From IMG/VR virus record IMGVR_UViG_3300048904_000185, positions 1 through 38,141 of that record: a DNA stretch of 38,141 bases. One strand, given 5' to 3'. Source of the stretch: a virus. Shown in pieces: positions 973-34,765 of the stretch. The first letter of the stretch is position 1. Every line of letters begins with the position of its first letter. The notes under the pieces were generated by a model. The model searched no databases. It saw only the letters and a list, made by a program, of their open reading frames with translations, and was not told where the DNA came from. The position numbers and the translations under genes were made by a program.

Positions 973-1130
973 CATGTGACTGACCGAATTGTTAAGTTTT
1001 TGCCTGTGAACTCTTGCGGGCGGTTGAGCTGGTTTGGTGCTTCGGTTGCCGGTTTTGTTCTGATCTCATTGTAGCGCGTTTGCGATGCTAATGCAATACT
1101 TTTGCGATGAGATTTTGGGGTTTGGGGTTT

Positions 1131-1350
1131 TGTAGACAAATGTAGACAGAAACAACAAACTAAATAACAGAGGTCGTAGACATGTAGACACTTAGTTTTC
1201 TATGTAATGTATTAAAGCTTGACAGCCATAAGCCATATATAGAGCTAGCGTACAGAGGTGGACGTATTACAGAGGCATCAATAATGTAATAACTTTTAAC
1301 CCCCAATAAGTGTCTACCATCTGGGAAAAGTGACTACAGAAGTGTCTACA
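1131..1350. promoter_or_regulatory. iteron-like repeat array (TGTAGACA family), probable protein-binding sites (origin or operator)
   Basis: TGTAGACA at 1131-1138, 1141-1148 and 1183-1190, and cGTAGACA at 1175-1182. Inverted copies TGTCTAC(c) at 1311-1317 and TGTCTACA at 1343-1350. An 11-bp perfect inverted pair: tgtagacactt 1183-1193 / aagtgtctaca 1340-1350. TACAGAGG at 1251-1258 and 1268-1275, plus aACAGAGG at 1166-1173. Confidence 0.55.
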
Positions 1351-1365
1351 AGTGTACTTTGTGAC

Positions 1366-1537
1366 ATTAATTACAACAGGCAAAGTCGATGTGTCATAAT
1401 ATGTGCATTTCATTTGCATCGTCACCCCTGTTATTTAACGTCGCACAATATACATTTTACGACCCATAATATATACCCTACCCCTGTTAGTGTGGGATTA
1501 ATTACAACGCCCCCCTAACCCTTTAGCTACCCCTGTT
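1366..1537. repeat. second short-repeat family (ATTAATTACAAC x2, CTACCCCTGTT x2 plus one variant, CATAATAT x2)
   Basis: attaattacaac at 1366-1377 and 1497-1508. ctacccctgtt at 1478-1488 and 1527-1537, with variant tcacccctgtt at 1422-1432. cataatat at 1395-1402 and 1464-1471. The track ORF 1330-1518 across this region has no ATG/RBS support. Confidence 0.5.
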
Positions 1538-1645: not shown

Positions 1646-1788
1646 ATACACTAAAATATTTTCTAACCACCTATCCTTATATTTGTAACTTTATTTACAA
1701 CAGTTTACACTAGTCTTGTGTGCCATTTTTCACCCGTCCGCTATATACGCTATTGTCAATTAACCCGCTATGGTAAATAATCACGACC

Positions 1789-2013
1789 ATGATAATCACA
1801 GGCAGAAACATGGGTGTCATTACGGGCCCCTCTGGACAACAAATACCGATTACCAAACAGGCACTTGAAGATCCGCTTGGTAACCCAGAGGTGCACGATA
1901 TTATGTCGTTTATAGCTGATCTGAATGTCGTAGAGCAAAAGAAAAAACCGAGCCGCAAATACTCCGAAGAAGAGCGCGTGGCACGTGGCCTTTCGAGGGA
2001 GTTAGCTAAATGA
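1789..2013 (+). CDS. hypothetical protein, first gene of the rightward arm
   Basis: 74-aa ORF whose stop overlaps the next start (ATGA at 2010-2013), implying translational coupling. No SD. TTGTCA (1753-1758)-15 nt-TAAATA (1774-1779) would put a transcription start about 3 nt before the ATG (near-leaderless), which is speculative. Confidence 0.45.
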   Translation: MIITGRNMGVITGPSGQQIPITKQALEDPLGNPEVHDIMSFIADLNVVEQKKKPSRKYSEEERVARGLSRELAK

Positions 2014-3461
2014 ATGAACCCGAGCAGAAAGAGTTGTCGGCCGTTGCCAAAAGTAGCTCAGCGATTACCGAAGCACACCATGTCGTGCGGTTCAGGGGTC
2101 GGCCAATGATCTTAGTGGACAATGAGACATTCCCTCATTTTCGGCCACTCCATAAAGAGCAGTTTGACCGGATTGCGTACCCGGTGTTGGGTGGGGTTTC
2201 TCGGAGTAAGATGTCAGATGTGTTCGCATATTTGAGTAATACAGCGGTTGATTTTACGGCCAACGAACACCTGATTACCTTTGGGAGCATGGCAGTCGAT
2301 GAAGATTTGAATTACAAGAATGGGACACCGTTTGTGTGGGATGGAGTCAATCTTGGTATCTCGTATGATGAACCTACACGATCTGTTTGGCGGTCACCAT
2401 ATAGGCCAGTCATGCTTGAGAACGATGACAGCGGGGAGGTCGAGCCGGTGCAATTTATCATGGATTTGGCTGGTGGTGATAGGGGATTGTATGAGGATAT
2501 TATGCAGAGTATCGCGCCGATTATCATGGACCAAAAACCTGACGGGGTTATCTGGTGGGTCGGCGATGGGGCCAACGGTAAATCGACTCTCATGGACGCG
2601 CTGTATCGGATGTTTCCAGGGCAGTTCTCGAGCATTACAGTGAAGCGCCTCGTGGACGGTCGAGACACGCCAAGCCTGAATGGTACACTGGCGAACATAG
2701 TCAAGGAAAGTAGCGAGGGCAGAATTGATGATACAGAGATTTATAAGTCGATCGGGACGCATGAAAATTTCCGGGTTCACCGCTTCCATAGCCAGGATGA
2801 TATTGAGGTGCGTGGTAATGTGCATCATATATTCTCCGCAAACAGTATCCCGAGCTTCAACGACAAAGGCTTTTCGGCCCGCCGCCGCACGTTCATCATA
2901 CCGTTCAAACAGGTATTCACGTCGGACCCGACATTTGAAGACCGGACATTCACGCCCCAAGTTTTCGGCCATTTACTCACCGAAATGATGCGGTTCGCGA
3001 ACAAGTTAAAAGATCAGGGCTATAAATACAAGTGGAGTGCCGCGACGCTGGCCGCTAAAGCTGATTACGATATGGAGGCGAACAATGCCGAGGAATACGT
3101 CAAGGAGCTTATCTCAGAGGGCGTGGTGGCCTTCACGAGCTATAACCCAGTGCGTATGGATTATGAGAACTGGTGCGCTGACAACGGCTATGTGGCGCTC
3201 GGTATTGGCAATCTGAAAAAGGCGATGGGTGCTTGCGGGTTCGAGCGTGTGAGCTCACGTGACGACAATAACAAAGTCAGGAAGGTCTACAAGCTCATAA
3301 GCATTGACGGTAATACACCACTCACGAGTCTCAGTATAGGGCGTCCAGGCTTGTTCACCACACAGGGCTTTCAGCGTCCCGTGGTGCCGCAGCAATTTGA
3401 TTCACCGAAAGCCGATAAGGATAAACCAAAACCGCCGAAGTCGCGGATAAGGGAGTGGTAA
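2010..3461 (+). CDS. D5/P4-family primase-helicase C-terminal type protein (SF3 helicase NTPase)
   Basis: Walker A VIWWVGDGANGKSTLMDAL, Walker B-like LANIVKESSEG, motif C HIFSANSIPSF, then RRRTFIIPF. This is the classic phage/plasmid primase P4-family C-terminal (D5_N + SF3) pattern. No recognisable AEP or DnaG primase motif in the first ~170 aa. Confidence 0.85.
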   Translation: MNEPEQKELSAVAKSSSAITEAHHVVRFRGRPMILVDNETFPHFRPLHKEQFDRIAYPVLGGVSRSKMSDVFAYLSNTAVDFTANEHLITFGSMAVDEDLNYKNGTPFVWDGVNLGISYDEPTRSVWRSPYRPVMLENDDSGEVEPVQFIMDLAGGDRGLYEDIMQSIAPIIMDQKPDGVIWWVGDGANGKSTLMDALYRMFPGQFSSITVKRLVDGRDTPSLNGTLANIVKESSEGRIDDTEIYKSIGTHENFRVHRFHSQDDIEVRGNVHHIFSANSIPSFNDKGFSARRRTFIIPFKQVFTSDPTFEDRTFTPQVFGHLLTEMMRFANKLKDQGYKYKWSAATLAAKADYDMEANNAEEYVKELISEGVVAFTSYNPVRMDYENWCADNGYVALGIGNLKKAMGACGFERVSSRDDNNKVRKVYKLISIDGNTPLTSLSIGRPGLFTTQGFQRPVVPQQFDSPKADKDKPKPPKSRIREW

Positions 3462-3883: not shown

Positions 3884-4127
3884 CATGAAAACTTCGTACG
3901 GTTCACGACAATCTGCGTGCCTACGTAAACAGAAATACGAGACGCACGAGGAGGCTATGCGCGCCGGGGCACGGCATGGTAACACAGTTTATCGCTGTCT
4001 GTACTGTAGTCTCTACCACCTGACTTCTGGCAACCAAAAGAAGATCAACAAACGACAACGCAAACGCACCAAGACGCTTGACCCGATCACAAATTTTAAA
4101 CGATATGGAGCAATAAGCAATGACTAA
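3837..4127 (+). CDS. small basic Cys-rich protein (YRCxYCxxYHLTS motif)
   Basis: ORF track. AGGAG lies 7 nt upstream of ATG 3837. An alternative in-frame ATG at 3885 starts 1 nt after the C2H2 ORF stop. The ...KYETHEEAMRAGARHGNTVYRCLYCSLYHLTSG motif resembles a recurrent small phage protein family of unknown function. The C-terminus is Lys/Arg-rich. Confidence 0.6.
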   Translation: MSKTQTPTNWRILTTDMKTSYGSRQSACLRKQKYETHEEAMRAGARHGNTVYRCLYCSLYHLTSGNQKKINKRQRKRTKTLDPITNFKRYGAISND

Positions 4128-4929
4128 TAAAGCGCAACTCGGAGACTTCCTCAAAGAGGTCGCTAACTGGGATTGGCTACAGTTTTTAGAGGCTGAGAAA
4201 AGCCCCGCCTATTCGACGAGTGACTCGATTATCTTCTCGCTTATCCGTGCTTGCTCGATCGAAAAAATGGATGCGATTAAGATTGCGCTGAACCGTATCG
4301 ATGGTAAATTGAAGACACCCGTGCAAATTGAATATCCAAAATTGTTCTATATTTACCCGAACGCGACGAGCATTGAGGGCGGTGAATTTCCATTAGAATA
4401 TCCGCTACTTGAACAAAATAATGATTCAGAAGTTGAACAAAAAATGTATTCAGAAGTCGTCGAGGGTGAGGTAATTCCCCCTGAAGATTTTGAGTTCCAC
4501 GACGATGAAGATATGACAATGAATGACCTGCCAAGTCTCTCGCTTCGCCAGACACTCACAAAGATGTCTGAAGCTCCGCAGTATGTACCGAACGATATTA
4601 TTGAGGCGAGTGAGGCTGTCGAGCAGAACCGCCGTGGCCAGGCAGTCCCATTACCTGACCATATACCTGCCGTAAAATCGGTCATCGCGGCTCACCTGCT
4701 ACGCATGGCTCAACGCAAAAATATCGACGCCTTTTATGAGGTATTCGATCAGATCGATGGTAAGCTTGTCGAGACTATTCAATTACTTGGAGACGACATG
4801 CAGATTCCTATTTACTCGCTGGTTGCCCCGGCTGGGGCTTACAGAAATGCTGATGGTGTGCTACAACTTGAAGCAACACAAGCACAGGAAGTCTGGACAC
4901 GGAAATTAAAAGAATTGGGTAAACAGTAA
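4120..4929 (+). CDS. hypothetical protein with an internal duplication (two ...IDGKL... helices) and an acidic centre
   Basis: 269 aa. IIFSLIRACSIEKMDAIKIALNRIDGKLKTPVQI and VIAAHLLRMAQRKNIDAFYEVFDQIDGKLVETIQL are evident repeats. The style resembles DNA-binding/small-terminase-like helices, but it is unassigned. Confidence 0.55.
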   Translation: MTNKAQLGDFLKEVANWDWLQFLEAEKSPAYSTSDSIIFSLIRACSIEKMDAIKIALNRIDGKLKTPVQIEYPKLFYIYPNATSIEGGEFPLEYPLLEQNNDSEVEQKMYSEVVEGEVIPPEDFEFHDDEDMTMNDLPSLSLRQTLTKMSEAPQYVPNDIIEASEAVEQNRRGQAVPLPDHIPAVKSVIAAHLLRMAQRKNIDAFYEVFDQIDGKLVETIQLLGDDMQIPIYSLVAPAGAYRNADGVLQLEATQAQEVWTRKLKELGKQ

Positions 4930-5510
4930 TGCGGGTATTCGATGACATCTATAAGACAAATTTTTGGGCTAGTGACGAGTCAGTTTCGGGTAAGGGTTCA
5001 GAGCTTTCGGCAACTGAAAAAATCCGTGATGAGTTACCTGGACTATTTGAACAATATTCAATCCGATCTTTTATTGATATCCCTTGCGGTGATTTCAACT
5101 GGATGGGTACTCTTCTGCCTCGTCTTCCTGGCATTGGGTATATAGGTGCCGACGTTGTATCGCATCTTATAGTTGATAACCAGTGGCGATATCCTGATCT
5201 TGATTTTCGCGTCCTCGATATTTCAAAAGATAAATTACCAAGGGTCGATCTGATTTTCGTTCGTGATTTACTTGGCCACTTCTCAAACGTTGATGTGAAA
5301 CATGCACTGAAAAATATCCGTGCATCGGGTGCTACGTATCTGTTAGCAACAACATTTCCTGGCCACGAAAACTTACACGATATCACAACCGGCCAATGGC
5401 GGCCAATCAATCTCGCATCATTCTTCGGTTTACCAGACCCTATAGAAACAATCAATGAAGGGCTGACCGGTGAGTTTGGTGATAAATCATTAGGGTTATG
5501 GAGGTTATAG
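4929..5510 (+). CDS. class I SAM-dependent methyltransferase (substrate unknown)
   Basis: The SFIDIPCGDFNWM motif-I-like stretch, followed by IGADV, DLIFVRDLLGHF and ATYLLATTF, matches the Rossmann MTase strand order. No DPPY/NPPY or PC/ENV DNA-MTase motifs. Confidence 0.6.
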   Translation: MRVFDDIYKTNFWASDESVSGKGSELSATEKIRDELPGLFEQYSIRSFIDIPCGDFNWMGTLLPRLPGIGYIGADVVSHLIVDNQWRYPDLDFRVLDISKDKLPRVDLIFVRDLLGHFSNVDVKHALKNIRASGATYLLATTFPGHENLHDITTGQWRPINLASFFGLPDPIETINEGLTGEFGDKSLGLWRL

Positions 5511-5512
5511 CA

Positions 5513-5779
5513 ATGGGTGTGGGGCACGACAACGTATCTTTTATGGACCAATATCGCAAACCAGAATCACTTTCACGTGAACAGCGACAACACTTTCTCG
5601 GTGTCGCAGCAGTTGCCGAGGTCCGCGCAGCAGAGTTTTATGAAATGTATGAAGAGCAACAGCGGACACGCGAAAGTGCTCTACGTATGGCTGGCTTGCT
5701 ACCACCAGAGCGTAGTATTGGTGACGATGTACCGACACGGGTTAAGCATCAGCCTGATGACAACGAGGGCCTATGGTAG
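5513..5779 (+). CDS. hypothetical protein
   Basis: Track ORF 5498-5779. The ATG at 5513 follows GGAGG (5499-5503) at 9 nt and avoids overlap with the MTase stop, so it is preferred. Confidence 0.5.
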   Translation: MGVGHDNVSFMDQYRKPESLSREQRQHFLGVAAVAEVRAAEFYEMYEEQQRTRESALRMAGLLPPERSIGDDVPTRVKHQPDDNEGLW

Positions 5780-6075
5780 TCGGACCAGAACGGCGGCTTG
5801 AGAGTAACGCAGTTATCTGGCTCAAGAGTATGGGTGCGTGGGTATTCAAACTTGGCGCAGTGCCAGGTGTACCCACAGGCGCACCCGACCGTGGTTTTTT
5901 CTATAAGGACAAATGGGGCGTCATTGAATTTAAACGCAGTGCTACTGCACCATTTCAACCTGGACAAAAACCAACGCTCGAACATTTACGCGAAGGTAAT
6001 CGGTTTGTGTATGTTGCGTACCCCGAGAACTGGCCGGATATCAAACAAGACTTGCTTGATAACTTCTTTGTCTAA
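5773..6075 (+). CDS. VRR-NUC domain nuclease
   Basis: 100 aa. ...GAPDRGFFYKDKWGVIEFKRSATAPFQPGQK... gives the PD...(E)xK...Q core typical of VRR-NUC. Start/stop overlap (ATGGTAG) with the upstream gene. Confidence 0.75.
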   Translation: MVVGPERRLESNAVIWLKSMGAWVFKLGAVPGVPTGAPDRGFFYKDKWGVIEFKRSATAPFQPGQKPTLEHLREGNRFVYVAYPENWPDIKQDLLDNFFV

Positions 6076-6398: not shown

Positions 6399-7430
6399 AT
6401 GGCTGGTATCGTCGGTTCAGACGGTCGTGCTGGTGTCTACTGGCTTGGCCAGAATGGTAGCGTTTACACTAAGAATAATCTTGGCCAGACAGTTAATGCT
6501 GGCCCTCATGCTGGTGGCGTGGCTTCGGTGCTCGCGCCTGGTGCTGACGCAAGTATCGGTGGTTATACCTATCGTAATATTGCTGACCCATTCGCTCCTG
6601 CACCAGCTACAGGTGCTCCTGCACCAAGTGCTCCAAATGGGACAAGTGGTGGCGGCGGCGGCAGTTCTTATACTGATAAGAGCAATGATATTTCTCTGCA
6701 AAATGCCGGTCTCTCAGCCGTTGGCGATCAGACGACCGCTGGACTTTCAGCCGTTGATAGGGCACTCGCGAATATCATGGGTCAATATGATACCGAGTCA
6801 AAGTCGAACGAGGGTACCTATCAAACACAGTCTGATACGAACCAGAATAACCTTCAGAAAAGCAAACAGAGCGCACTCGTCAACGGCTCACAAGGTCGTC
6901 AAGGTTTGTTCGGCAAGCTCGCAAGTATTGGTGCGCTATCTGGTGACGGTATTAAGCTCGCCAACAACGCTGTTCAGCAGGGGGTCAACGAAGACCTTTC
7001 TGGCGCAGCTGATACTTACGGCACCAATCAATCAGGTCTTGATACAGCAATTGGCACCTTCCGTCAGGAAGACAAGATGCGTCGTGAGAACGCAAACAAC
7101 TCCGCTACTGACGCACGTACTGGGGTTAATAACCAAGCTGCAAAATCACGCCAAACATTCTACTCGAATCTAGCGAATGATTATGCTGCTCAGGGTGATA
7201 TGGCAAATGCGAGGAAGTTTACCGCACTCGCAGCTGCTGAATATCCGAATGTCGCTAATACAAGTGTCCCAAGCACCAACCTCGCTTACACTGGCGCAGC
7301 ATTTACTCCAACCACGCTTTCAAACTATATTACTGGCGCAAATAGCACTCAGGTTTCGACCTCAGCTTCGCCAGATAACTATGGTATCCCAACATTAGTC
7401 GCAGGAAATACTAAACGAAAGACCGCTTAA
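6399..7430 (+). CDS. virion-associated protein (Gly/Ala/Asn/Gln-rich), function unknown
   Basis: 343-aa ORF tightly packed between neighbours. Low-complexity, coiled-coil-like composition typical of internal virion proteins. Confidence 0.5.
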   Translation: MAGIVGSDGRAGVYWLGQNGSVYTKNNLGQTVNAGPHAGGVASVLAPGADASIGGYTYRNIADPFAPAPATGAPAPSAPNGTSGGGGGSSYTDKSNDISLQNAGLSAVGDQTTAGLSAVDRALANIMGQYDTESKSNEGTYQTQSDTNQNNLQKSKQSALVNGSQGRQGLFGKLASIGALSGDGIKLANNAVQQGVNEDLSGAADTYGTNQSGLDTAIGTFRQEDKMRRENANNSATDARTGVNNQAAKSRQTFYSNLANDYAAQGDMANARKFTALAAAEYPNVANTSVPSTNLAYTGAAFTPTTLSNYITGANSTQVSTSASPDNYGIPTLVAGNTKRKTA

Positions 7431-10400
7431 ATGGATTTTCTGAGTAATATTTTTCACGGCATCGGTGACTTTGTTGGTGGTTTACTTAATGGTAATAACA
7501 ATGACCAAAGGAAACGCCAACAACAGCAACAACAATCCTTCTCTGCGCCAGCCCCGCAGAGTTCTGTTCAACCCGGATTCCACTCCGCCCTGCCAGGAGT
7601 TGTTACACAGACCACTACACAAGCACCAGCAGTTAACCTGTACCAAGCTCCCGCCGCGAATCAACTACAGAAACCAGCTGCTCCGAGACCTACACCAGCA
7701 CAGCCTCAGCAGCCATTCGCTGCGCCAGCTCAGTTAACACGGCCACTACCGACCGTAGGTCAAATTACGGGTATCCAGACGCCACAAGCACCATCAACAG
7801 GTCCAGGATTCAATCCGGTTAACTGGGTCGCTGACAACATCGTAAAACCGACTGCCGATGTTGCTGGTAAGGTAGCTAACACAGGAATTGGCGGTATCGC
7901 ACTCGCAGGTAACGCATTATCTGCTGGGGCAGATCAGCTATTTCGTGGCGGTAAAAACGCCAATTTCTATCAAAATGAGGCTAATGCTATCAACAATAAC
8001 TTCCTTGCTCCAGGTAAGGGCTTGTTTGGTGCAGGTGGGTTCCAAACAGGTAAAGACTTTGAAACTGAGTCACCAGCTCAAGCGCTTGGTGCTGGCATTG
8101 GCGCTGGAGCACAGGTAGCGCCATATCTTATCGGTAATCCTGAAGGCGCACTCATAGATAAATTCGGTAATGTTATTGGAGACAAATTTGTCAACGCTGC
8201 TGCCTCAACGCTTGCTAAAAAAGGCTCTCAATATGCCGTTCAGGGTGCTATCACAGCTCCGGCAGTTGCGAGCGCTAATGCAGTAGAGCAGGGTATCGCT
8301 ACAGGTAAATTCGACCCAGGGCAGTCGATTCAGACTGGCCTCGCGAGTATACCCGCTGCAATTCTAGGTAGTGCTGGTGGCGACGCTTTGCACGCTCTTG
8401 GCACAAAAGTTGGCACTGGTAGGCCAGAGACTCAGGCAATACTGCCCGGTGAAGCCGCACCAGGCGTTGCAAGTGTCAATCCGAATCGTGAAACCGATGC
8501 TATCTCGCAAATGACACCACCAGCTGAACAGATGCCTTCTCCACAAGAACAAGTGCCAGCTGTCACTCCTGAAGCCCCTCAACCAGTCGTCCCTCCTCAA
8601 GTACTAGCTACTACTGAACTTCCTCGTATTCCAGAGACTGCAGCGCCTCAGCAGGCTCCAGCAGCTCCAGCAACACACGATATGCTCGTGAAACAGCTTG
8701 GCGATCAAGGTAAGGGTTTTAAAAAGAACTATACGACTCGTGACATCATTAATTTAGATGATTTGAAGCAGAAGGCTACTGGGGTTATAAACAACATGGA
8801 TGACGAATCGCTTGTTCGCTCATTTCAGACTGCTGATCCTGAAACAATTGTTACTAACCCACAGTCATTTGCTGTTGCACGTGCAGCTGTCGAGCGGCTA
8901 AGTAAGAATGCCGACGACCCAGCATCGGTTCAGACAGTTAGTAATCTTCTCGATGCAATGGACAAAGCAAGTAGTCGATCTGGCCAGATGCAGCGTATTG
9001 TACGCGAGGAATTTGATAGTATGCCAGTTCCTATGAAGGCTCGCTATATTATGAAGCAGATTGACAAAGCCAATGTCGGCGATAATGAGTATGTTCCTTT
9101 GAGGGATAGGCCAGACGAAGCAGCTCTTATCGATCAGACGATTACAAGTGGCTTGAACAAGTCAGAAGCCATTGCAAATCGTGTTTCACAGATTCAGGAC
9201 CAATTGAACCAAGTCGCCGAAGCAGCGAAAAATGGCCAAAAAAGTGATGTTAATGTTGGTGATCTCGCAGTTGCGCTAAAAGATGCCGAAATGGAGCTTG
9301 GAGCGAGTAATGGCGAATTGGTCAAATATTATCAGACTTTGGTGCCAAAACGCTCAATTGGCCAAAAAACCAATGATTTTGCTCGAAATGCTATGCTTTC
9401 AAGCTTTACGGGTCGTGTTAACGATATCGCTACTACAGCGACGAATATGGCTCAACAGAGTCTCCAAAACACTGTCCAGGGGGCTATCGCTAAGGGTGTC
9501 AACGCCTTCAGTCCCGGTAAGGTACTTGATACATCCCGGGGTACAGGTGCTTTTTGGCGCGGTACACTTGAAGGTGTCGGTAAAGGTGCGCGTGAGTTTA
9601 CAAATGAGATACAAGCAGGTGATCTACAGAAGTCACTCAAAAATGGCAGTATGGGAAAACGTACTCAGTTAGCGAAATCGCAAAATCCTCTCGGTCGCAC
9701 TATACAGGCATCTACTGAGTTCGCAACTCATGCGAGTGAGGGCGTTCGTGACCAGCGCCTCTATCAATTGGCTATACAAGAAGCTCAGAAAGCCGGCATT
9801 CCACGCAATCTGCGCGACCAATATGCCAGTGCTCGTGCGGCTGTTCCTTCACGTGATATGCTCGATAATGCCCAAAAACTGCACGATACGGTCAATAACT
9901 TGAATGATAATCCAATTAGTAATAAGTTACGCAGTATTGTCGATGCTATCGACCCACCGGGCGCAGCGAAAAAAGGTAATAAAGCTCAAGCATGGGCGGG
10001 TGGCCTTCTTCGTAATCAAATTTTGCCATTTACGAGCTGGGCTGGTGGCAATATCTGGAATGGCGTCACTGACAGAAATGTTGTCGCTGCTGCTGTAAAA
10101 CTCGGTAATTCTATCCGTAAGGGTGATGCAGATGGTATCGTCGAGAACCTCGCTAAAACTGCTATTCATGGTGGTGAGACATACGCGCTAGGCTATTTGC
10201 TTAGTCAGAACGGTACTATTACTAACAAGGATGCAAATGGTAATAGTTATGATGGCCTTTATCTTCATGCAGGTGATCGCTACATACCAGTTGCTTTCAC
10301 TGGCTTCTTTGCGCCGAGTATCATCCTTGGTCATGCTGCTTATCAGGCAATTAACTCTGGTAAGGACCCTGCAAGCGCAATTGGTGACTTTGCCGGTAAC

Positions 10401-11498
10401 ACGCTTGCTGATTGGGCAAAATCGGCAAGCCTTTCGAGCGTCATGGGCACTGACAATAACATTACTCGTTTAGCAGCTGTTCCGGCGTCTGAGCCGAAGG
10501 GTACGAGTGCAGGCGATACACTCGGTGATACGGGTGCTGCGGCTGGTGCAAGCATTATAAATCAATATGTTCCGGCAATAACCCGTGATATTAACTCAGT
10601 TTTGAATAATTATACTGGTCTGAACCCAACGAAAGAGGCAGCCAATACAACGGTCCTTCAGACAAACCCAGCTACCGGCAATCAAGTAAAAGACAAGGGA
10701 GCTAGCGCTGGAGCCAGTATTCTTAATAACATCCCTGTTGCTTCACAACTCGCGTTGCCACGTAAGCAAGGTGTTGCATCGGCTGACCTTGTTGATCGTG
10801 TGACTCATGGCAGTAGTGATACTGCAACAACAAAGCAGCAACGAGCAGACGCACAAACAAAGGCCGATCAGATAGCAGCAGATGCAAAGGCTGGAATCCC
10901 GAACCCTGACGCAACATATAAACAGGGTGACAGTTTTGCTAATGCTGTCGAAAATCGTATTGAGAATAGTCAATACGACCAAGCAATAGCTGGTTTGAAG
11001 GAGCAATTAACAAAGCTTAAATCTGGTGATAATCCAACAAAAGCACAAACTGACCCTGTAGAAAAGCAGATTAAAGAGACGCAAGTACTGAAAGATGGAA
11101 ACTACGACCCGGCAATTCGTGATCTCTATAAACAAACGACGCAGTCACAGTGGCGTGACATGGGTGACCCGAACAGTGATGGATATGACCCAAAGACATA
11201 CGAAATGCTATGGCAGTATCAGAATGACCTTGTGAAGGCAGGTCTTAACACGACTGTCGCTGGTGTGAATACAAATAAATATAGTCCAAAAGCCCCAGCA
11301 AAGGGTCGAAGTGGCAGCGGTGGCCGCGGCGGCTCAACAAGCGCGGCTGGGGGTACCATTAGCCCTGTCGAGCTGAAAAACATCAGCCTGGGTAGCCTTA
11401 GCCCCCAGAAAATCAGCAACGCACCAATCCCAACTATTAGACAGATAAAGCCCACAGATTTGCCAAAAAAGCGTACAATATCAATTAGTAAGGGTTAA
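7431..11498 (+). CDS. large (1355 aa) virion protein, internal core/ejection- or tape-measure-like
   Basis: Longest ORF in the window. N-terminal poly-Q and Pro/Gln-rich region, Gly/Ala-rich hydrophobic segments, long helical regions, C-terminal GRSGSGGRGG. Size and position next to tail tube-like genes recall T7 gp16-class proteins. No catalytic motif seen. Confidence 0.55.
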   Translation: MDFLSNIFHGIGDFVGGLLNGNNNDQRKRQQQQQQSFSAPAPQSSVQPGFHSALPGVVTQTTTQAPAVNLYQAPAANQLQKPAAPRPTPAQPQQPFAAPAQLTRPLPTVGQITGIQTPQAPSTGPGFNPVNWVADNIVKPTADVAGKVANTGIGGIALAGNALSAGADQLFRGGKNANFYQNEANAINNNFLAPGKGLFGAGGFQTGKDFETESPAQALGAGIGAGAQVAPYLIGNPEGALIDKFGNVIGDKFVNAAASTLAKKGSQYAVQGAITAPAVASANAVEQGIATGKFDPGQSIQTGLASIPAAILGSAGGDALHALGTKVGTGRPETQAILPGEAAPGVASVNPNRETDAISQMTPPAEQMPSPQEQVPAVTPEAPQPVVPPQVLATTELPRIPETAAPQQAPAAPATHDMLVKQLGDQGKGFKKNYTTRDIINLDDLKQKATGVINNMDDESLVRSFQTADPETIVTNPQSFAVARAAVERLSKNADDPASVQTVSNLLDAMDKASSRSGQMQRIVREEFDSMPVPMKARYIMKQIDKANVGDNEYVPLRDRPDEAALIDQTITSGLNKSEAIANRVSQIQDQLNQVAEAAKNGQKSDVNVGDLAVALKDAEMELGASNGELVKYYQTLVPKRSIGQKTNDFARNAMLSSFTGRVNDIATTATNMAQQSLQNTVQGAIAKGVNAFSPGKVLDTSRGTGAFWRGTLEGVGKGAREFTNEIQAGDLQKSLKNGSMGKRTQLAKSQNPLGRTIQASTEFATHASEGVRDQRLYQLAIQEAQKAGIPRNLRDQYASARAAVPSRDMLDNAQKLHDTVNNLNDNPISNKLRSIVDAIDPPGAAKKGNKAQAWAGGLLRNQILPFTSWAGGNIWNGVTDRNVVAAAVKLGNSIRKGDADGIVENLAKTAIHGGETYALGYLLSQNGTITNKDANGNSYDGLYLHAGDRYIPVAFTGFFAPSIILGHAAYQAINSGKDPASAIGDFAGNTLADWAKSASLSSVMGTDNNITRLAAVPASEPKGTSAGDTLGDTGAAAGASIINQYVPAITRDINSVLNNYTGLNPTKEAANTTVLQTNPATGNQVKDKGASAGASILNNIPVASQLALPRKQGVASADLVDRVTHGSSDTATTKQQRADAQTKADQIAADAKAGIPNPDATYKQGDSFANAVENRIENSQYDQAIAGLKEQLTKLKSGDNPTKAQTDPVEKQIKETQVLKDGNYDPAIRDLYKQTTQSQWRDMGDPNSDGYDPKTYEMLWQYQNDLVKAGLNTTVAGVNTNKYSPKAPAKGRSGSGGRGGSTSAAGGTISPVELKNISLGSLSPQKISNAPIPTIRQIKPTDLPKKRTISISKG

Positions 11499-11513: not shown

Positions 11514-12272
11514 ATGTCACCAAAAGATCAATTTACCAAATACGCACAACGACTCTACCTTACGGTTAAGGGCCGACGTTTTGATAATATTGACAATACT
11601 GACGGCCAGACCTATTTGATGAACTGCGCCGAGTGGACGAACATGTTTCTTGATGAGCTCGAACTCGAAACTGACCCTGATGGTCGTGCTATTAACTGGT
11701 GGTGGATGCGTACTAACGACTTCACGCTTGGTACAGTAGCTAATACGACTGATACGACCCTATCGCTTCCATCGACGGTCAAGAACCTCATTAGCGCCCC
11801 AGATCGCTACGTACGTGTATTACAGGATGGTACACCTATATCGAGCTTCCGCGTGGTAAATGCTGACCAGATCAACAACAAGCCGAATAATGGAGTACAG
11901 GAAGATCGTGTGGCACAAATTGGCAGTACGCTCTATTTCAGTCGTCCATTTAAAGACACTGAGCTGTCTGGCACCATTACTGGTGATGTCACTGCCTCAC
12001 TCCCACGCGTCGTCTACAACGTCGCGAGCGATGGGACGCTTAGCTTTACGAATATCAAGGCGCTGACGGTCGTAGACCCTCAGACGTTGCTCGTATTAGG
12101 CTCAGCGAAGAACATGTCACTACCAGACATTGTGCAGGGCAAACTCAGCCCAAGTTACGCGCAGAAGTTCAACGACATGCTCCAGGGCGCGATCGCACGA
12201 AGTACGGCAACATCAGCCTCAAATTCAATTGAGACCCAAGATTATAGCGGTGTTACCGGAGTATATGGCTAA
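11514..12272 (+). CDS. tail/adaptor protein (tail tubular A-like by size and position)
   Basis: 252 aa. Its stop overlaps the next start (TAATG). Sits between the giant protein and the 692-aa protein upstream of the portal. No motif proof. Confidence 0.4.
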   Translation: MSPKDQFTKYAQRLYLTVKGRRFDNIDNTDGQTYLMNCAEWTNMFLDELELETDPDGRAINWWWMRTNDFTLGTVANTTDTTLSLPSTVKNLISAPDRYVRVLQDGTPISSFRVVNADQINNKPNNGVQEDRVAQIGSTLYFSRPFKDTELSGTITGDVTASLPRVVYNVASDGTLSFTNIKALTVVDPQTLLVLGSAKNMSLPDIVQGKLSPSYAQKFNDMLQGAIARSTATSASNSIETQDYSGVTGVYG

Positions 12273-14350
12273 TGGCTGTTGACAAACCAGTACCAGTACC
12301 TGAGCAGCAGATTACTGCGACTAACCAGGTCGGTTGGCCCGGTGGTCTAAATCTGAACGGTGCGCCAAATGCTGATGTAACTGACTTAACAGAGGTCAAA
12401 GATATCGAACTTGATATTAACGGCTTTGTTGTGCCACGTCGTAACCTTGTGCCATTTCTGCCCGATACTGTTGGTACGGCTTACCAGAAATTACCTGTCC
12501 GTTGGAATGGGTTATTGTATTACTTCACGATCGATTCTGATGGTAAGGCGAAATTTTGCCAGCAAACAGATGCAACTTGGACAAACTGTGGAGGTACGAA
12601 TAGCTTTACAATGACTGGCGGTAAGCCAGAATTACTTCGTGTGCTCGATCATATCCTTATCTTGAACGGCTCTAATAATCAAAAAATGGCCTCGATCGAC
12701 CTAAATACTAGCGGTTTTCCAATTGTCAATTACACAGCAGTTACGAACCCAACGACAACCATGACGACTGCACTTACAGGTATTACCACTGGTGCGTTGA
12801 AAATCTACTATGCCTATAGTTATAGTGGTAACTTCGGTGAAACAGCGTTGTCACCTATCGTCACACAGTCGATTAACATCCCGCGCGACCAGTGGCAGAC
12901 AGCAGCAACGCCCGGTAAAATTACTCTTACTTTCGGTGACACGCCACCAGCCGGTGCGACATTCCGTAACATGTACATTGCGCTTGCAGCAACAGGCGGT
13001 ACGATTACAGCTACTGACATGCTTCAAGTCTCGGCTGGCATTGATCTCAACGCGACTACCTTTATCGACGATGGTTCACTTGACATTAATCTCGGTAATC
13101 CGGCTCCAACAGAAAACTCAACCGATTCGTTCAAAGTGAGCCATGGTATCGTCGAAGATGGTAATCCTATCCTTTTTGGCGACCCAGACAACCCAGAGAA
13201 TATCTATATCGGTGGTGGTGGCCCCTATGCTCTGAGCTTTTCTACCGCGAACAACGGTTTTAAAGCCCAACCGGAGCTTGGTACAAACTTCGTCCCAACT
13301 GTTATTATCGGGTTCCGTAACGGTCAGGGACAACCAAGCCTTACGGTGCTTTACTCGAACACAGAGGGTATTTCTAAGCAGTCTGTCCTTGAACAACAGA
13401 CCGTCAACTATGGCAATACCTCATTTAACGTCTGGGGCGTCACTTCGCAGCACTACGGTGCCGCTGGTGTAGCCGCAACTAACTCAGCCATCAACTACAA
13501 CGGTAAGTTACTATTCATGTCAACAGATGGCTTTATGAGCATGAATACTCAGCCCCTACGCCAGAACGTCATCTCTACTGACCCGCTGTCGATCAAGAAA
13601 ATCGATAAACTGGTACGGGCTATCAAGAATTCCGCTATGGGTACGATTGTTGGTACCGGTTGGGGTAACAAGTTTATGTGGACAATTCCGAACGATGGTT
13701 TTGACACCCCACAGCAGCTTCTTATCGCCGATGACAATCACAACGACTCATGGTATGTGCTCGATATCCCAGCTAACTGGATTGGTGTCGTTTCACCATC
13801 AGACTCATCGGCATTTGTTTATATTAGCCAGGGTAATAAAACCTATCAGTTGCAACCTGGTGATACCACATATGATATAAAGAACGGCGTACCGGTTCCA
13901 TTCTCAACTAAGGCTGTCGGTGCTATGGCACCCCTAAACAGCGCTCCTGCTCACAACAACTGGGGGGCAACAGTCCAGGCAGTTTTCTATGTCGAAGAAA
14001 TCATTGGTAATATCACAGTTGGTATAAATTACAAAGACCAAAACGGTACCCTGAAAAACCGCGAAGTACTCTATGAAGGGCCCGCGTATACGCCGTCTGG
14101 TGCGGGTGGCTGGGGTGATATGGGTTGGGCATTTGGTGGCGTTGCCTCACCTGCCATCAGTGGTTTTCCTCGTATAGACGCCTCAGCCGCAGCGATTACA
14201 AATATTGATGATCGAATCAAAGTACCGATTGATGATATTATGAACGAGTATCAGTGGTATATTAAGACTGACGCAGGCTACAACCACTATCGTCTTCGCT
14301 CAGTATCACCAGAAGGAATTAACCTAGGCGTTCGGCCTGACTTACAGTAG
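12272..14350 (+). CDS. tail tube/nozzle-like protein (tail tubular B-like by size and position)
   Basis: 692 aa with beta-rich composition, adjacent to the portal. Assignment by synteny only. Confidence 0.4.
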   Translation: MAVDKPVPVPEQQITATNQVGWPGGLNLNGAPNADVTDLTEVKDIELDINGFVVPRRNLVPFLPDTVGTAYQKLPVRWNGLLYYFTIDSDGKAKFCQQTDATWTNCGGTNSFTMTGGKPELLRVLDHILILNGSNNQKMASIDLNTSGFPIVNYTAVTNPTTTMTTALTGITTGALKIYYAYSYSGNFGETALSPIVTQSINIPRDQWQTAATPGKITLTFGDTPPAGATFRNMYIALAATGGTITATDMLQVSAGIDLNATTFIDDGSLDINLGNPAPTENSTDSFKVSHGIVEDGNPILFGDPDNPENIYIGGGGPYALSFSTANNGFKAQPELGTNFVPTVIIGFRNGQGQPSLTVLYSNTEGISKQSVLEQQTVNYGNTSFNVWGVTSQHYGAAGVAATNSAINYNGKLLFMSTDGFMSMNTQPLRQNVISTDPLSIKKIDKLVRAIKNSAMGTIVGTGWGNKFMWTIPNDGFDTPQQLLIADDNHNDSWYVLDIPANWIGVVSPSDSSAFVYISQGNKTYQLQPGDTTYDIKNGVPVPFSTKAVGAMAPLNSAPAHNNWGATVQAVFYVEEIIGNITVGINYKDQNGTLKNREVLYEGPAYTPSGAGGWGDMGWAFGGVASPAISGFPRIDASAAAITNIDDRIKVPIDDIMNEYQWYIKTDAGYNHYRLRSVSPEGINLGVRPDLQ

Positions 14351-14373: not shown

Positions 14374-16134
14374 ATGAACAACGACACGCAAACTCAACTG
14401 CTATTCGGGCAACAGCCAATCATCAACAATACTGGTATTGATATGCAAAACCTGCTCGAAGAGTGGCGTTTTTCAAAGACCTATGTCGAGCAGTACACCC
14501 GTGACTTTAAGCAACTTGACGATCTTGTCGATGGTGTGCCGCTCAATAAAGATACCAATGCACCGTTCGTTGGTGATACCACATTGCCCGGTCTCGTTCG
14601 CTCAATTCCTCGAAACAGCTTACAACAACTACCGGTGTTTTCAGCCCGTGTAAACGGCTCAAAAGTCTCAATTCCAGCACTTATCTGTACGTTTCTTTTG
14701 AAGAAATTTGCCTTTAATGAGGACACGTTTGGTAAGGGTCTACTCTCGACTCTTCAGGTCGGTGCTGAACAAGCACTGACACATGGTTATGCAGCTTTTA
14801 TGGTCGGTACAGGTCTTCTTTTCAACGACTTCGGGACGACGCTTCGGCTGCTTCATTTTACCGATACCTCACCAGAGCCAGGTATCCAAGACCATAATGA
14901 GACTGGCTACGACTTCGTATCAGGACACCCGACACCTGGTCGTGTGCGTCGTATCTTGCGCGCAGCTATGCGTAATCCAAATACAACTTGGAATGTTGAG
15001 GCGCTACAAAAGGTGCTCCAGTCAACCGCTACACCAACGAATTATTCGATTTGGGAGAGTACTGCGCGACAGAATAACCCTGGTGAACAATCAGGTCCTA
15101 CCTACGAGTTTGTCACTCGCTATGAAACGGGTCCAGATGCATCGATTATCACATTCTGCCCGCTCGTCACAGATGTGCCACTTCGTATGATGGATAACAA
15201 CTCGAAATGGGGCTACCCAAGGGTTATGTACCTGGTTATCGACCCAGCACCGCTCACACCATTCGGTGTCTCTCGTGTACGCTTGGCATCGCCAAACCAA
15301 AACCTTATGAACATCTATTACGCGAATATCGCATCGATGCTGCTACTCAACAGCAAGCCACCAATTCTCAAGCGTGGTCGTTTCTTGAAGCCAGTTGCCT
15401 TGAAGCAAGGTGCTGTCTGGGAGACTATGGATACCAATGCTGACGCGAAACTCGTCACCATCGATAATGGTGCGCTTGAGCAGTTTGTCGGGATGGCTCA
15501 GCAGTTTGCCGGTCAGATTCAGAACATCATGGGTGGCCAGACAATGCAGGTGAACAACGCCAATGGTAAGAGTGGCTTCGGTAAGACCGGCCCTGGTATC
15601 AAGGCTGCCTCAAACGTCATGGACGTAAATACCAACCAGATTACTAAATTACTTGAAAACTTCCTACGTCAGTACGCACTGGTTGCCCTTGACACACTGT
15701 TTTGTGAGCAGGAAGGCGTCGATCAGATTATTGTAGATGATGAGACGAAGAACGCCATTAACACTGTAGTGCCCGGTTTTGTTGGTGACGACAATAAGGT
15801 TGCTATGGACTGGCAGCGTTTCTACGCAGCTATTGAAGAGTGGGGCGTTGACATCGACGTATCGATCTCTCAAGACCAACTTGACGATCAACAGCGTGCT
15901 GACATGCAGGATATGATGGTTGTACTCGGCCAGAATATCGATAAGCTTGGCCCAGATGCACAAATGAAATTTGAGCAACTGACTAACATGCTGATGCAAC
16001 AAAAGACACCACTACTTAAGTCACTGGCCCTTGGTCAACCAGGGATGGCACCACAAGGCGGTGTCCCCGGTAATCTACCCTCAGTAGCACCACAGCAGAT
16101 GCCTCAGCCACAGCCAGCCCCTGCGGGTGTGTAA
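14374..16134 (+). CDS. portal protein (putative)
   Basis: 586 aa, immediately upstream of the scaffold-like gene. Gln/Pro-rich flexible C-terminus (QPGMAPQGGVPGNLPSVAPQQMPQPQPAPAGV) like podovirus portals. Assigned by size and order, not by motif. Confidence 0.6.
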   Translation: MNNDTQTQLLFGQQPIINNTGIDMQNLLEEWRFSKTYVEQYTRDFKQLDDLVDGVPLNKDTNAPFVGDTTLPGLVRSIPRNSLQQLPVFSARVNGSKVSIPALICTFLLKKFAFNEDTFGKGLLSTLQVGAEQALTHGYAAFMVGTGLLFNDFGTTLRLLHFTDTSPEPGIQDHNETGYDFVSGHPTPGRVRRILRAAMRNPNTTWNVEALQKVLQSTATPTNYSIWESTARQNNPGEQSGPTYEFVTRYETGPDASIITFCPLVTDVPLRMMDNNSKWGYPRVMYLVIDPAPLTPFGVSRVRLASPNQNLMNIYYANIASMLLLNSKPPILKRGRFLKPVALKQGAVWETMDTNADAKLVTIDNGALEQFVGMAQQFAGQIQNIMGGQTMQVNNANGKSGFGKTGPGIKAASNVMDVNTNQITKLLENFLRQYALVALDTLFCEQEGVDQIIVDDETKNAINTVVPGFVGDDNKVAMDWQRFYAAIEEWGVDIDVSISQDQLDDQQRADMQDMMVVLGQNIDKLGPDAQMKFEQLTNMLMQQKTPLLKSLALGQPGMAPQGGVPGNLPSVAPQQMPQPQPAPAGV

Positions 16135-18869: not shown

Positions 18870-20240
18870 TTAACTAGCGGGTTTATACTGGGCGGCAGCT
18901 GCGAAGCTGTCGCTTTCATATGTCTCTTGGCCACCTGCCTCGAATAGGAAGTTACCAGCATCATCGAAGAATTGTCTAATCGCTGCAAACATATAGCGAA
19001 CTGAGTCAGCCGCGTGCGACTCAGTTTTATGTTCTGGCCCCATATACTCGCCTGTATCAGGATTCCACTTACGGGAGTATTTAAGGAGTTTTTCGCGCAG
19101 TTGTTTGGTTGTCTCGGTATTCATGAATGACTTTATGATTTCTTCAACAGCACGCTGTATACCGTGCTCCTTGCCTTCGCGGGTGATAATCGATATGTTG
19201 GTCAGACCAAGGGCCTCAAGCTTCTGTATGCGCTCGATAGCGTCGCTCTGTTCACGGACATTAGCATCGTGCGGCACAAAATGCCAGCCGTAGTTGTATG
19301 GTTTCAGTTTGAGGGCAGCCACTATGGTGTTATAGGCTACATCATGGGTTTCGTAATAATCGATAATAAACAGCTGTTTGTTCACATACTGGAAGAAGGT
19401 TATGGCTGTGCTATCGCCGGTACCAAGGTCCCAGGCGGTATAAACTGGCCATTCACTGCGCCATGGCACATCACGAATACGGCCTCGTTTTTCTAGCTGC
19501 ATGAGGGCATTGCCATAGTAGCTTGTTTCGCTCACCTGGCCCCAGTCACACATGTACTCCTGCATAAACTTAAAGTTACTACCGTACTTCTCGATAATTT
19601 CTTCTTCGAGGTCTTTGAGGATTTCTTTTGATAGGAAGTGGTCGGCAGTGATACGGCTGGCGAACTGGGTTTTGTCACCCTCTGTCCACTTCCTAAAGGC
19701 ACGCTCCCACATCTTTTTAAAGGCAGCACCAGAGGTACCATCGACTTTTGGCGTCGACTGGACGATGATTTGACCACCGTTCACAGCAATGATTGGACGG
19801 ATAACTTCGTAGGCCTCGCTACTAATATCAACGAACTCAGAGAAGATATATAGCTTGCCGTTCGCACCACGTAGTGCTTCAGGGTCTTTGGCACCGAGTA
19901 GCGACAGCACACTGCCGTTTTTAAATATAATTTTCATATTAGTTTCGCTGTTTGTACGACTCGCAACAATGCCCTTTGGTATGTGGTCGAAGATCTTTTT
20001 GCCATCGTTTTCAGTAGTGTTCCAAAAGTTGTCATACCCCTGTTTCATAGTCGGCCAAACGATGACAACGTTCATTGGCTCTTGTACCATCTTTTTGATA
20101 GCATAGGCAAAAGCAGTGAAGTCTTTGCCACCACGACGGGCCCAGCACCATACTGAAATGGTGACACCGAGATCGAGTGCAGCCAGCGCCTCGGCTTGGT
20201 AGTCGCGCGGGTCAAAGTAGAGTGGTACTTGTATAGCCAT
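18870..20240 (-). CDS. terL: terminase large subunit
   Basis: 456 aa. N-terminal ATPase (YQAEAL..., WCWARRGGKDFTAFAY Walker A-like, IFSEF Walker B-like). C-terminal nuclease motifs (YTAWDLGTGDSTAITFFQ, HFVPHDANVRE, HAADSVRY). Confidence 0.9.
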   Translation of the reverse strand: MAIQVPLYFDPRDYQAEALAALDLGVTISVWCWARRGGKDFTAFAYAIKKMVQEPMNVVIVWPTMKQGYDNFWNTTENDGKKIFDHIPKGIVASRTNSETNMKIIFKNGSVLSLLGAKDPEALRGANGKLYIFSEFVDISSEAYEVIRPIIAVNGGQIIVQSTPKVDGTSGAAFKKMWERAFRKWTEGDKTQFASRITADHFLSKEILKDLEEEIIEKYGSNFKFMQEYMCDWGQVSETSYYGNALMQLEKRGRIRDVPWRSEWPVYTAWDLGTGDSTAITFFQYVNKQLFIIDYYETHDVAYNTIVAALKLKPYNYGWHFVPHDANVREQSDAIERIQKLEALGLTNISIITREGKEHGIQRAVEEIIKSFMNTETTKQLREKLLKYSRKWNPDTGEYMGPEHKTESHAADSVRYMFAAIRQFFDDAGNFLFEAGGQETYESDSFAAAAQYKPAS

Positions 20241-20371: not shown

Positions 20372-21220
20372 ATGGCATACGGTACAAAAACCGCAAACGT
20401 CATGGACATCCCACTGAGCATTAGTTCGGTTTTTACCCCTTACGTGGGCGACCAGGGCTATAAGTGGGACGGCCTGAACAGCGTCCGTGTCCTGTCTATT
20501 GCAGACGGTTCACTGTCGAACTACGACGAAACCAGCGCTACTGCCCCATTCGGCAGTCCATCGCTCGTCGTGCCAAATGAGCAAGTTCTGGCATTGGCTT
20601 ACAACAAGTCGATGTTGCTCCGCATCCAGCGCACCCAGATTCAGGACATTCCAGTTAGCCAATTCGCAAAGCAAGTTGCTTTGCAGCAAGCTAACGATGT
20701 GTTTGTCCCAGCGCACGACGCTTACTCATTGGGTAAAGTGTTCGCAGCGCGCCCTTCCGGTAACGTGACTGCCGTAAATACAAGTCGCAACGATAATGGT
20801 CTTCAGACCATGATTAACAAAATCCGTACTGCGGGTGGTAATCTTTCAAACGTTGTTTGTTGGGTTACGTACACCTTCGCAGCTACCATCCGTGACAAGA
20901 TCAACTACACTGGTAGTGACGCTGGTTACGCAAATGGTCAGAACGGCTACCTTGGGAAGATCGCCGGTGTTACAACCGTCGAAGTGCCTGATCTCTACCT
21001 GTTCGCAGGTGTGAGCGCTCTTGCAGCTGACAAACGAGCAATCGTCAACGTCACTCCTAAGATGGACCCAAAGCGTGATTTGGTTGTCATCGACCCTGTG
21101 CCATCGTTTAGCGGTGTTGAGCTTCAGCTCCGTGACCGTGCAGACACATTCGTGTTGAACAAAAAAGTCAACGCAGTTGCATCACTTGAAACTGCTGCTT
21201 CGACCACAACGACTACTTAA
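20372..21220 (+). CDS. major capsid protein (putative), C-terminal TTTTT tail
   Basis: 282 aa with its own strong promoter and RBS. Position follows the portal/scaffold block. The sequence style resembles small HK97-fold podovirus coat proteins. It ends ...LETAASTTTTT (Thr codons 21203-21217). Confidence 0.65.
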   Translation: MAYGTKTANVMDIPLSISSVFTPYVGDQGYKWDGLNSVRVLSIADGSLSNYDETSATAPFGSPSLVVPNEQVLALAYNKSMLLRIQRTQIQDIPVSQFAKQVALQQANDVFVPAHDAYSLGKVFAARPSGNVTAVNTSRNDNGLQTMINKIRTAGGNLSNVVCWVTYTFAATIRDKINYTGSDAGYANGQNGYLGKIAGVTTVEVPDLYLFAGVSALAADKRAIVNVTPKMDPKRDLVVIDPVPSFSGVELQLRDRADTFVLNKKVNAVASLETAASTTTTT

Positions 21221-34596: not shown

Positions 34597-34765
34597 CAGT
34601 GTTCTCCTGTAAAATTGGGTTAGTATCCATGTAATTCCGTAGTGCTCGACGCTGTAACTCTGCGAGATCGATCTTTGCGCTTTGCGTATAGTTTGCTACT
34701 TCTTGTGCAAATTCTTCCTCGACCCGTACAGCTGCAAGCTGTTTTGTCTTGGCTATTTTTGCCAT
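34577..34765 (-). CDS. ribbon-helix-helix (CopG/Arc-like) DNA-binding protein (putative)
   Basis: 62 aa. KQLAAVRVEEEFAQEVANYTQSAKIDLAELQRRALRNYM fits a beta-strand/helix/helix RHH layout. RBS GGAGGG. Lies downstream of the internal promoter. Confidence 0.45.
   Translation of the reverse strand: MAKIAKTKQLAAVRVEEEFAQEVANYTQSAKIDLAELQRRALRNYMDTNPILQENTDGKEAN

Follow-up and report, generated by a model that had tools for sequence, protein, structure and literature searches.

What is the role of the short repeats that crowd the non-coding hub of an uncultured phage genome, and which protein reads them? The window, meaning the whole stretch of DNA analysed here (38,141 nucleotides; virus record IMGVR_UViG_3300048904_000185), is a complete genome, either circular or circularly permuted, as shown by an exact terminal overlap of 127 bases; the unique circle measures 38,014 bp with 47% GC, and its junction falls inside a gene, away from the hub. 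The hub itself (697–1788) is 1.1 kb of non-coding DNA between two divergent gene arms, a setting that the initial annotation had described correctly, with the leftward open reading frames (ORFs) ending at 696 and the rightward ORFs starting at 1789. The repeats within it (1131–1350) almost certainly constitute a conserved and functional array of putative protein-binding sites, and this array is probably an iteron replication origin that is read by the phage's own self-loading superfamily 3 (SF3) helicase, encoded at 2010–3461 on the plus strand. The origin and helicase reading is favoured because the array is kept in relatives, because its layout resembles that of the origins of Staphylococcus aureus pathogenicity islands (SaPIs), and because two near-identical phages have swapped it along with the helicase gene.

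All elements that had been listed earlier for the hub are present, including the GTAGACA core at 1132, 1142, 1176, and 1184 on the plus strand and at 1311 and 1343 on the minus strand, a perfect 11-mer (TGTAGACACTT, 1183–1193) that opposes its reverse complement (1340–1350), TACAGAGG at 1251 and 1268 (17 bp apart), AACAGAGG at 1166, and two copies of TTTGCGATG at 1079 and 1101. The repeat unit of 7–8 bp that had been proposed with them is not borne out, and the real unit is an 11-mer, TGTAGACA(C/G)TT. Two further features had been missed: a third inverted copy, which is degenerate and lies on the minus strand, and the second motif in inverted orientation (ACCCCTGTT), which occurs three times (1424, 1480, and 1529). 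The array consists of seven 11-mers in two sets that face each other, four on the plus strand (1131–1193) and three on the minus strand (1308–1350). Directly left of the first iteron is a T/G-rich tract (TTTTGGGGTTTGGGGTTT, 1113–1130, plus strand), followed by iteron L1 (TGTAGACAAAT, 1131–1141), which has a perfect core and a degenerate 3′ part, and iteron L2 (TGTAGACAGAA, 1141–1151), at a spacing of 10 bp from L1. An A-rich stretch then precedes a B element (AACAGAGGT, 1166–1174, plus strand), which adjoins the inner pair of iterons, L3 (CGTAGACATGT, 1175–1185) and the full-consensus L4 (TGTAGACACTT, 1183–1193), at a spacing of 8 bp. The centre of the array (1194–1307, 114 bp) holds a TTGACA (1219–1224) and two more B elements (1251–1259 and 1268–1276); it is 64% AT, compared with a genome median of 53% in 100-bp windows, and is presumed to be the zone of melting and assembly. 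To its right are the three minus-strand iterons R1 (GGTAGACACTT, 1308–1318), R2 (TGTAGTCACTT, 1328–1338, the degenerate copy with one core mismatch), and R3 (TGTAGACACTT, 1340–1350), which has the full consensus and faces L4.

The genome-wide motif scan proposed in the initial annotation gives nine copies of GTAGACA in total against 4.9 expected, so that the core is not enriched overall, and six of the nine lie within 1132–1349. None of 200,000 random placements of nine sites brought six of them within 220 bp (P < 5e-6), and GTAGACA is the sole 7-mer in the genome with at least five copies in any 220-bp stretch. Thirty related loci were fetched (designated here by three-digit L numbers), of which 18 have an intact hub; the contig of the closest relative of the window (P0122) stops short of the hub. 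All 18 intact homologous hubs carry an 11-mer array on a conserved TGT...CA(C/G)TT frame, and this set includes a clade with a helicase only 42–47% identical. The arrays are clear in L001, L002, L005, L006, L008, L011, L017, and L019–L027, while that of L030 was read by eye and that of L029 is weak, with two sites. The layout is shared within the window's own clade, where a T/G-rich tract is followed by left copies on the plus strand, an AT-rich centre, and right copies on the minus strand; a TTTTGGGG-type tract precedes the array in L019–L021 and L023–L026, and the inner left copies are often a tandem pair 8–10 bp apart. In a distant clade (L006, L008, and L011), the copies are clustered and their orientations are intermixed.

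At least nine variants of the 11-mer occur across these phages, and each phage is internally uniform. TGTAGACAsTT is the form in the window, L002, L006, L008, L011, and L019–L021; the others are GGTAGACAG (L024–L026), TGTAGGCAGTT (L023), TGTAGCCACTT (L005), TGTGTACACTT (L001 and L022), TGTATACAGTT (L017), TAGAGTCACTT (L027), TGTACCAsTT (L029), and TGTAGGTAGTT (L030). Four loci from a single IMG sample have three different variants, and because the variants differ among phages of one sample, a phage-encoded reader explains them better than a host factor does.

The search for such a reader was made by clustering the protein families encoded within 6–10 kb of the hub in 18 genomes (the window and 17 relatives). 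Four families are universal (18 of 18), namely the helicase, p269 (4120–4929), the Hjc-like p100 (5773–6075), and p343 (6399–7430). The DNA of L001 and L030 is 97–100% identical from the stop codon of the helicase gene onward, spanning p269, p100, and p343; the left flanking gene is 91–95% identical and the right part of the hub mostly 73–96%. Two blocks are replaced in this pair, the first comprising the left hub and the iteron array (L001 4597–5245) and the second the small upstream ORFs and the entire helicase gene (L001 5544–7370). The two helicases are 56% identical, and the iterons are TGTGTACACTT in L001 and TGTAGGTAGTT in L030. At the level of the module, the helicase block and the array were swapped jointly, and p269, p100, and p343, which are near-identical in the two phages despite the differing iterons, are therefore not the specificity determinants. 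The protein p269, rejected for this reason, also gave no family, sequence, or fold match.

The C2H2 ORF, the ribbon-helix-helix (RHH) protein, the Zn-ribbon protein, and the D5 helicase had all been put forward as candidate binders, and the helicase is the one that is favoured. The RHH protein (34577–34765) was rejected because L023 and L025, whose iterons differ, have an identical N-terminal stretch in this protein, where the DNA-reading beta-strand is predicted. The C2H2 and Zn-ribbon ORFs are disfavoured, as they are not kept in relatives that retain the array. The accompanying statement that neither a repressor or Cro-like gene nor an initiator gene is evident is correct with respect to the repressor, which is absent from the window, and wrong with respect to the initiator, because the helicase itself is an initiator-type protein.

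The candidate initiator is a 483-aa SF3 helicase of the P4/D5 family, with an N-terminal domain (residues 1–145), an ATPase (146–375), and a C-terminal domain (376–483). It matches DUF5906 (E 1.3e-11), the helicase part of PHROG primase families, and TIGR01613 (“phage/plasmid primase, P4 family, C-terminal domain”; E 2.4e-23), the last with a score of 82.5 bits that is below the curated cut-off of 108.7. A primase domain was not found in this protein, and no primase or DNA polymerase was recognised among the ~30 ORFs scanned. When a profile of nine homologues is compared with the PDB, the best match is 7OLA (E 1e-11). In an AlphaFold2 model built with 114 homologues (predicted local distance difference test 90, predicted template modelling score 0.83), the C-terminal end forms a winged helix with helices at 378–392 and 399–408 and a beta-hairpin at 411–429. 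This winged-helix part of the C-terminal domain (residues 376–440, nucleotides 3135–3329 on the plus strand) is the proposed iteron reader, with 399–408 as the recognition helix and 411–429 as the wing. A Foldseek search of the PDB with the model places PriRep5 of SaPI5 (7OLA and 7OM0) first, with E 1e-16 over ~430 aligned columns, at an identity of only ~18–21%; the next matches are the PrimPol of African swine fever virus, poxvirus E5/D5, and NrS-1. Homologues of the helicase are frequent in metagenomes, with 424 found at E ≤ 1e-30, many of them on contigs of 37–40 kb.

Helicases from phages with different and with shared iterons were also compared along their length. The helicases of L023 and L025 are 85% identical and their iterons differ; the most divergent 20-residue windows are at 406–437 (35% identity), which corresponds to the end of the recognition helix and the wing. 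Similarly, the wing region ties for most divergent between L002 and L017, whose iterons also differ, and it is not the most divergent region between L006 and L008 or between the window and L020, which share an iteron. A partial Mantel scan across 17 phages places the top four of 89 helicase windows at 406–440 (r ~0.32, uncorrected p 0.002–0.03). A simple column test on nine sequences gave no convincing specificity residues in the helicase, p269, p100, or p343. We infer that the sites are bound by the helicase and not by some other protein, that the winged helix is the domain reading them, and that binding starts replication.

In the mechanism proposed here, the helicase would bind the 11-bp iterons TGTAGACA(C/G)TT through its C-terminal winged helix, and, since the four left (plus-strand) and three right (minus-strand) sites point towards each other, helicase subunits would be placed on either side of the 114-bp AT-rich centre. 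Opening of the duplex, assembly and self-loading of the hexamer, and bidirectional unwinding would then take place at the centre. The central bases of the iteron, which differ among related phages and change with the helicase gene, would set the specificity of the replicon.

Several observations weigh against an origin that is read by the helicase. An XRE helix-turn-helix (HTH) gene, 39% identical between the two phages, is swapped in the same block as the helicase in L001 and L030, so that this pair cannot separate the two proteins, and the helicase is preferred because it alone is universal. In the Mantel scan, the control proteins equal or exceed the helicase peak (p343, r 0.54; p269, r 0.35), and because these controls, which are excluded by the L001/L030 pair, peak as high, the scan is too noisy at 17 sequences to serve as evidence. 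L001 and L022 share an iteron and have C-terminal domains that are only 53% identical; likewise, TGTAGACA persists across C-terminal domains only 33–38% identical to that of the window, which implies that specificity would rest on few residues. The TTGACA and B elements in the array are independent of the helicase type, which suggests that another factor or transcription also acts there. The array of SaPIs is immediately downstream of rep, whereas the array here is in a divergent hub upstream of the gene, with a gap of ~660 bp between the end of the array (1350) and the start of the helicase gene (2010), and no GTAGACA is found near the 3′ end of the helicase gene (3461). The most AT-rich stretch of the genome (1615–1714) lies outside the array. 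On the circular genome, cumulative GC skew reaches its minimum within the hub, which agrees with an origin but is confounded with the switch of coding strand at the same place and cannot be separated from it.

The main rival to the origin reading is that the 11-mers are operators of a small regulator encoded in the slot upstream of the helicase gene, which would control early divergent transcription, for example from the central TTGACA, without any start of replication. The slot is occupied by unrelated small proteins, including an XRE HTH protein in 8 of 19 genomes, a basic Zn-ribbon-like family in 5 of 19, an HNH protein in L019, and unassigned proteins in L020 and in the window, where the 74-aa ORF (1789–2013) has no family match. 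An operator role would fit the position of the array between the divergent arms, the −35-like TTGACA kept in its centre, the exchange of the XRE HTH gene with the array in L001/L030, and the presence of direct and inverted short repeats, which suit dimeric or multimeric repressors. The frame and layout of the array are constant, however, while the slot protein is unrelated or missing, and the window has no homologue of the slot XRE HTH or Zn-ribbon families in any of its six frames; given their occurrence in 8 and 5 of 19 genomes and their absence from the window, both were rejected as a universal binder. In addition, no consistent −10 follows the TTGACA (candidates at ~8–22 nt, read by eye), and the asymmetric 11-mers form two facing sets rather than palindromes that overlap promoter hexamers. 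Slot-regulator operators are for these reasons considered unlikely.

The promoter-like matches of the hub are likewise elsewhere. Those nearest to the first genes are at 808–781 (minus strand) for the leftward arm and at 1753–1781 (plus strand, the best sigma-70-like match in the hub) for the rightward arm, both at a distance of over 300 bp from the array; the sole further match (1425–1396, minus strand) is also outside it. A CTATATACGCTATTG sequence at 1741–1755, 35–50 nt upstream of the first rightward ORF, probably marks the rightward early promoter region because it overlaps the match at 1753–1781; ATATAGCGCTTG is found at a comparable position in L001 and L002. The initial annotation had expected an origin and/or the master early operators at this place. 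The origin is favoured by the conservation, the SaPI layout, and the co-exchange, and the master early operators are unsupported, because the distance from the array to the first gene of either arm is 435–440 bp, the promoter matches are outside the array, and no repressor is encoded.

Other elements of the hub do not vary with the iterons. The hub contains six B elements, AACAG(A/G)GG(T), three of them on the plus strand (1166, 1251, and 1268) and three on the minus strand (1424, 1480, and 1529), and the exact form AACAGRGGT occurs four times in the hub versus three times in the remaining 37 kb. In most relatives a B-type element, degenerate in some, adjoins the inner pair of iterons and may point either way, and a central B element of the (G)CTAACAGAGGT(A/G)G type is usual in the centre of their arrays whatever the iteron variant. 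The central TTGACA (1219–1224 in the window) also recurs in most relatives whatever the variant; it was rejected as a standard sigma-70 promoter, as the spacing to −10-like hexamers, read by eye, ranges over ~8–22 nt among relatives. A palindrome, ACGTCGCACAAT-N4-6-ATTGTGCGACGT, usually flanked by B elements, is kept in sequence in 11 loci of both deep clades. The copy in the window (1437–1466, with flanking B elements at 1424–1432 and 1480–1488) is degenerate, and the loci also include L001, L006–L008, L010, L011, L020, L025, and L030. The palindrome remains 73–96% identical between L001 and L030, where the array is replaced, and its orientation is constant, whereas the B elements flip orientation between clades. 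From its sequence, it looks like a site for a conserved dimeric factor, and we take it to resemble, loosely, an NrdR box with a longer centre. Further right in the window is a G-run, GGGGCGGGGGGGTGGGG (1561–1577), which is found as GGCGGGGGGG in the hubs of 11 of the 12 relatives checked. A weak hairpin comes next in the window, and beyond it the 100-bp stretch with the highest AT content of the genome (1615–1714, 80% AT). The G-run could form a G-quadruplex, or 1615–1714 could be the true unwinding element.

The hub can be read as modular, with the variable array as a putative origin and the invariant elements as transcription or host-factor signals or as accessories of the origin. A stronger version of this idea, a composite of origin and switch, is doubtful. 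In it, helicase-specific iterons would be interleaved with the invariant AACAGRGGT, TTGACA, and B-palindrome-B (ACGTCGCACAAT...ATTGTGCGACGT) elements, which would be read by a conserved or host factor, and, in a phage where neither a primase nor a DNA polymerase was recognised, transcription in the centre would give a primer or an R-loop; that the central TTGACA supplies a primer transcript is speculation. If true, the composite hub would be a transcription-primed SF3-helicase origin, which is not described for this helicase family.

A dual role of the array, in which helicase-bound iterons would trigger the origin and in addition regulate early transcription, negatively or positively, with copy number set by handcuffing as in iteron plasmids, is rather improbable. 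It shares all support for the origin model and adds the TTGACA and B elements within the array and its position at the divergence of the arms; nevertheless, nothing specific favours the added regulation, the promoter-like matches are elsewhere, and the single cluster in the genome leaves no second cis site for handcuffing. A site for a host factor (DnaA-like or a nucleoid protein), for packaging (a TerS pac or cos site), or for partition (parS) is very improbable, since the perfect DnaA boxes beside the array in L002 and L019 and the L028 assembly that ends inside its hub are set against an 11-mer that varies among phages from one sample and is replaced along with the helicase block, a window hub with no DnaA box within one mismatch, the lack of ParA or ParB in Pfam and PHROG scans of ~30 ORFs, a large terminase (TerL) gene 17.5 kb away, and a circular assembly junction inside a gene rather than in the hub.

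DnaA boxes within one mismatch are absent from 697–1788, and their genome-wide counts equal those of shuffled sequence; an oriC-type cluster of such boxes (TTATCCACA-like) was rejected as a model for the hub on this basis. Among the relatives, perfect boxes (TTATCCACA or TGTGGATAA) occur by the array only in the hubs of L002 (5089–5097) and L019 (4809–4817 and 4820–4828), the latter as a pair 11 bp apart. The assembly of L028 ends in its hub (1–480), and several long inverted repeats able to form hairpins lie in its first 300 nt, so that either a further structured element is present or the assembly broke at the hub.

Left of the array, a second type of phage-specific direct repeat is present, which is unrelated between phages. 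The window has two copies of TTTGCGATG (1079–1087 and 1101–1109), L027 has three to four of TTGTGCGGC (~8070–8200), L022 has three of TGTGTGGCA (5424–5465), and L023 has three of AACGTTTAAC (8715–8750). These repeats are candidate operators of variable small regulators. Between the leftward genes and the array there are also nested inverted repeats (807–825/972–990, 826–838/872–884, and 888–897/963–972), and the minus-strand RNA of 807–990 gives a three-way fold (−81 kcal/mol, z −6.3; plus strand, z −3.0). L001 has a different sequence at the equivalent position (4780–4930, minus strand) that also folds strongly (z −5.7). The 807–990 structure has no Rfam match and could be a structured leader of the leftward arm, a small RNA, or a DNA cruciform.

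In the wider genome, the long rightward arm includes a single gene on the minus strand, that of the large terminase (18870–20240), which lies just upstream of the gene for the major head protein (20372–21220) and points away from it. No family match was obtained in the libraries tried for the large proteins encoded at 7431–11498 (1355 aa), 12272–14350 (692 aa), and 14374–16134 (586 aa), nor for the universal p343, which is rich in Ala, Gly, Asn, and Gln. Rfam searches at the gathering threshold (whole window) and at E ≤ 1 (hub) and a tRNA scan gave no matches. A DNA search with the hub gave no match and there is no close cultured phage; identity to cultured relatives reaches no more than ~28% for the helicase and ~33% for TerL. 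A helicase homologue that is 50% identical is present in L016 (CAYPFI010000042.1), a 5.9-kb contig binned to a Candidatus Saccharibacteria metagenome-assembled genome, and this binning, the sole hint of a host, may be an artefact.

A helicase-read origin in this hub would provide a concrete pair of origin and initiator for a large uncultured phage lineage, and would extend the SaPI/P4 type of origin with a self-loading helicase beyond satellites, to a phage that appears to be autonomous. The variants, at least nine in number, together with the one clean exchange in L001/L030, offer a natural series for the study of how a winged helix reads an 11-bp site, and the same series shows how related phages that occur together could avoid cross-reaction between replicons.

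Among known systems, the closest likeness is to the SaPIs. SaPI Reps are both initiators and helicases, and they recognise iterons through a C-terminal winged helix; the SaPI origin has 6–12 iterons around a roughly central AT-rich region, and each flank of this region holds two or more of them, the two flanks pointing in opposite directions (PMC9371898). The window shows the same arrangement, with four plus-strand copies, the 114-bp AT-rich centre, and three minus-strand copies. The Rep and PriRep proteins of SaPI1, SaPIbov1, and SaPI5 (7OLA) share with the phage protein the SF3 helicase and the C-terminal winged helix, which in the phage is modelled, and PriRep5, a proven initiator-helicase, is the best match of the window helicase in both sequence and fold, the binding by the phage protein being predicted. 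The origins likewise share two opposed groups of short iterons around an AT-rich centre, with a sequence that is specific to each Rep. The SaPI, however, is a satellite island, whereas the window is a complete 38-kb and apparently autonomous phage; the iterons are 5–6 bp in SaPIs and 11 bp here; the phage helicase has no recognisable primase fused or adjacent to it; and the phage iterons are interleaved with the invariant B element AACAGRGGT and TTGACA.

The ori and crr of phage P4 carry octamer iterons (TGTTCACC), both direct and inverted. P4 requires crr as a second, distant cis site, whereas a single cluster is present here. In the P4 alpha protein, too, a winged helix follows the SF3 helicase on its C-terminal side (PMC2777425). 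This protein (winged-helix domain, PDB 1KA8) differs from the phage helicase in its N-terminal DnaG-type primase, as the phage helicase has no primase domain.

Two other known arrangements were considered and rejected. A lambdoid OL/OR operator region bound by CI and Cro, in which near-palindromic operators overlap divergent promoters next to the repressor and cro genes, does not agree with asymmetric 11-mers, promoter-like matches outside the array, and the absence of an HTH repressor from the window. A parS/parC centromere, which would have genes for a ParA ATPase and a centromere-binding protein (ParB or RHH) beside it, does not agree with the lack of ParA and ParB in ~30 ORFs or with an RHH N-terminal strand that is the same in L023 and L025 despite their differing repeats.

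The origins of iteron plasmids (RepA, pi, and TrfA) and of phage lambda (O protein) differ from the phage array in several respects. RepA, pi, TrfA, and lambda O are not helicases and recruit host DnaB, unlike the SF3 helicase of the window; their iterons are 17–22 bp long, are as a rule direct repeats throughout, and frequently lie within or next to the initiator gene, whereas those of the phage are 11 bp in facing sets; and their origins usually need DnaA boxes, of which the window hub has none. They share with the phage array clustered, replicon-specific repeats beside an AT-rich region, and a specificity that evolves together with the initiator.

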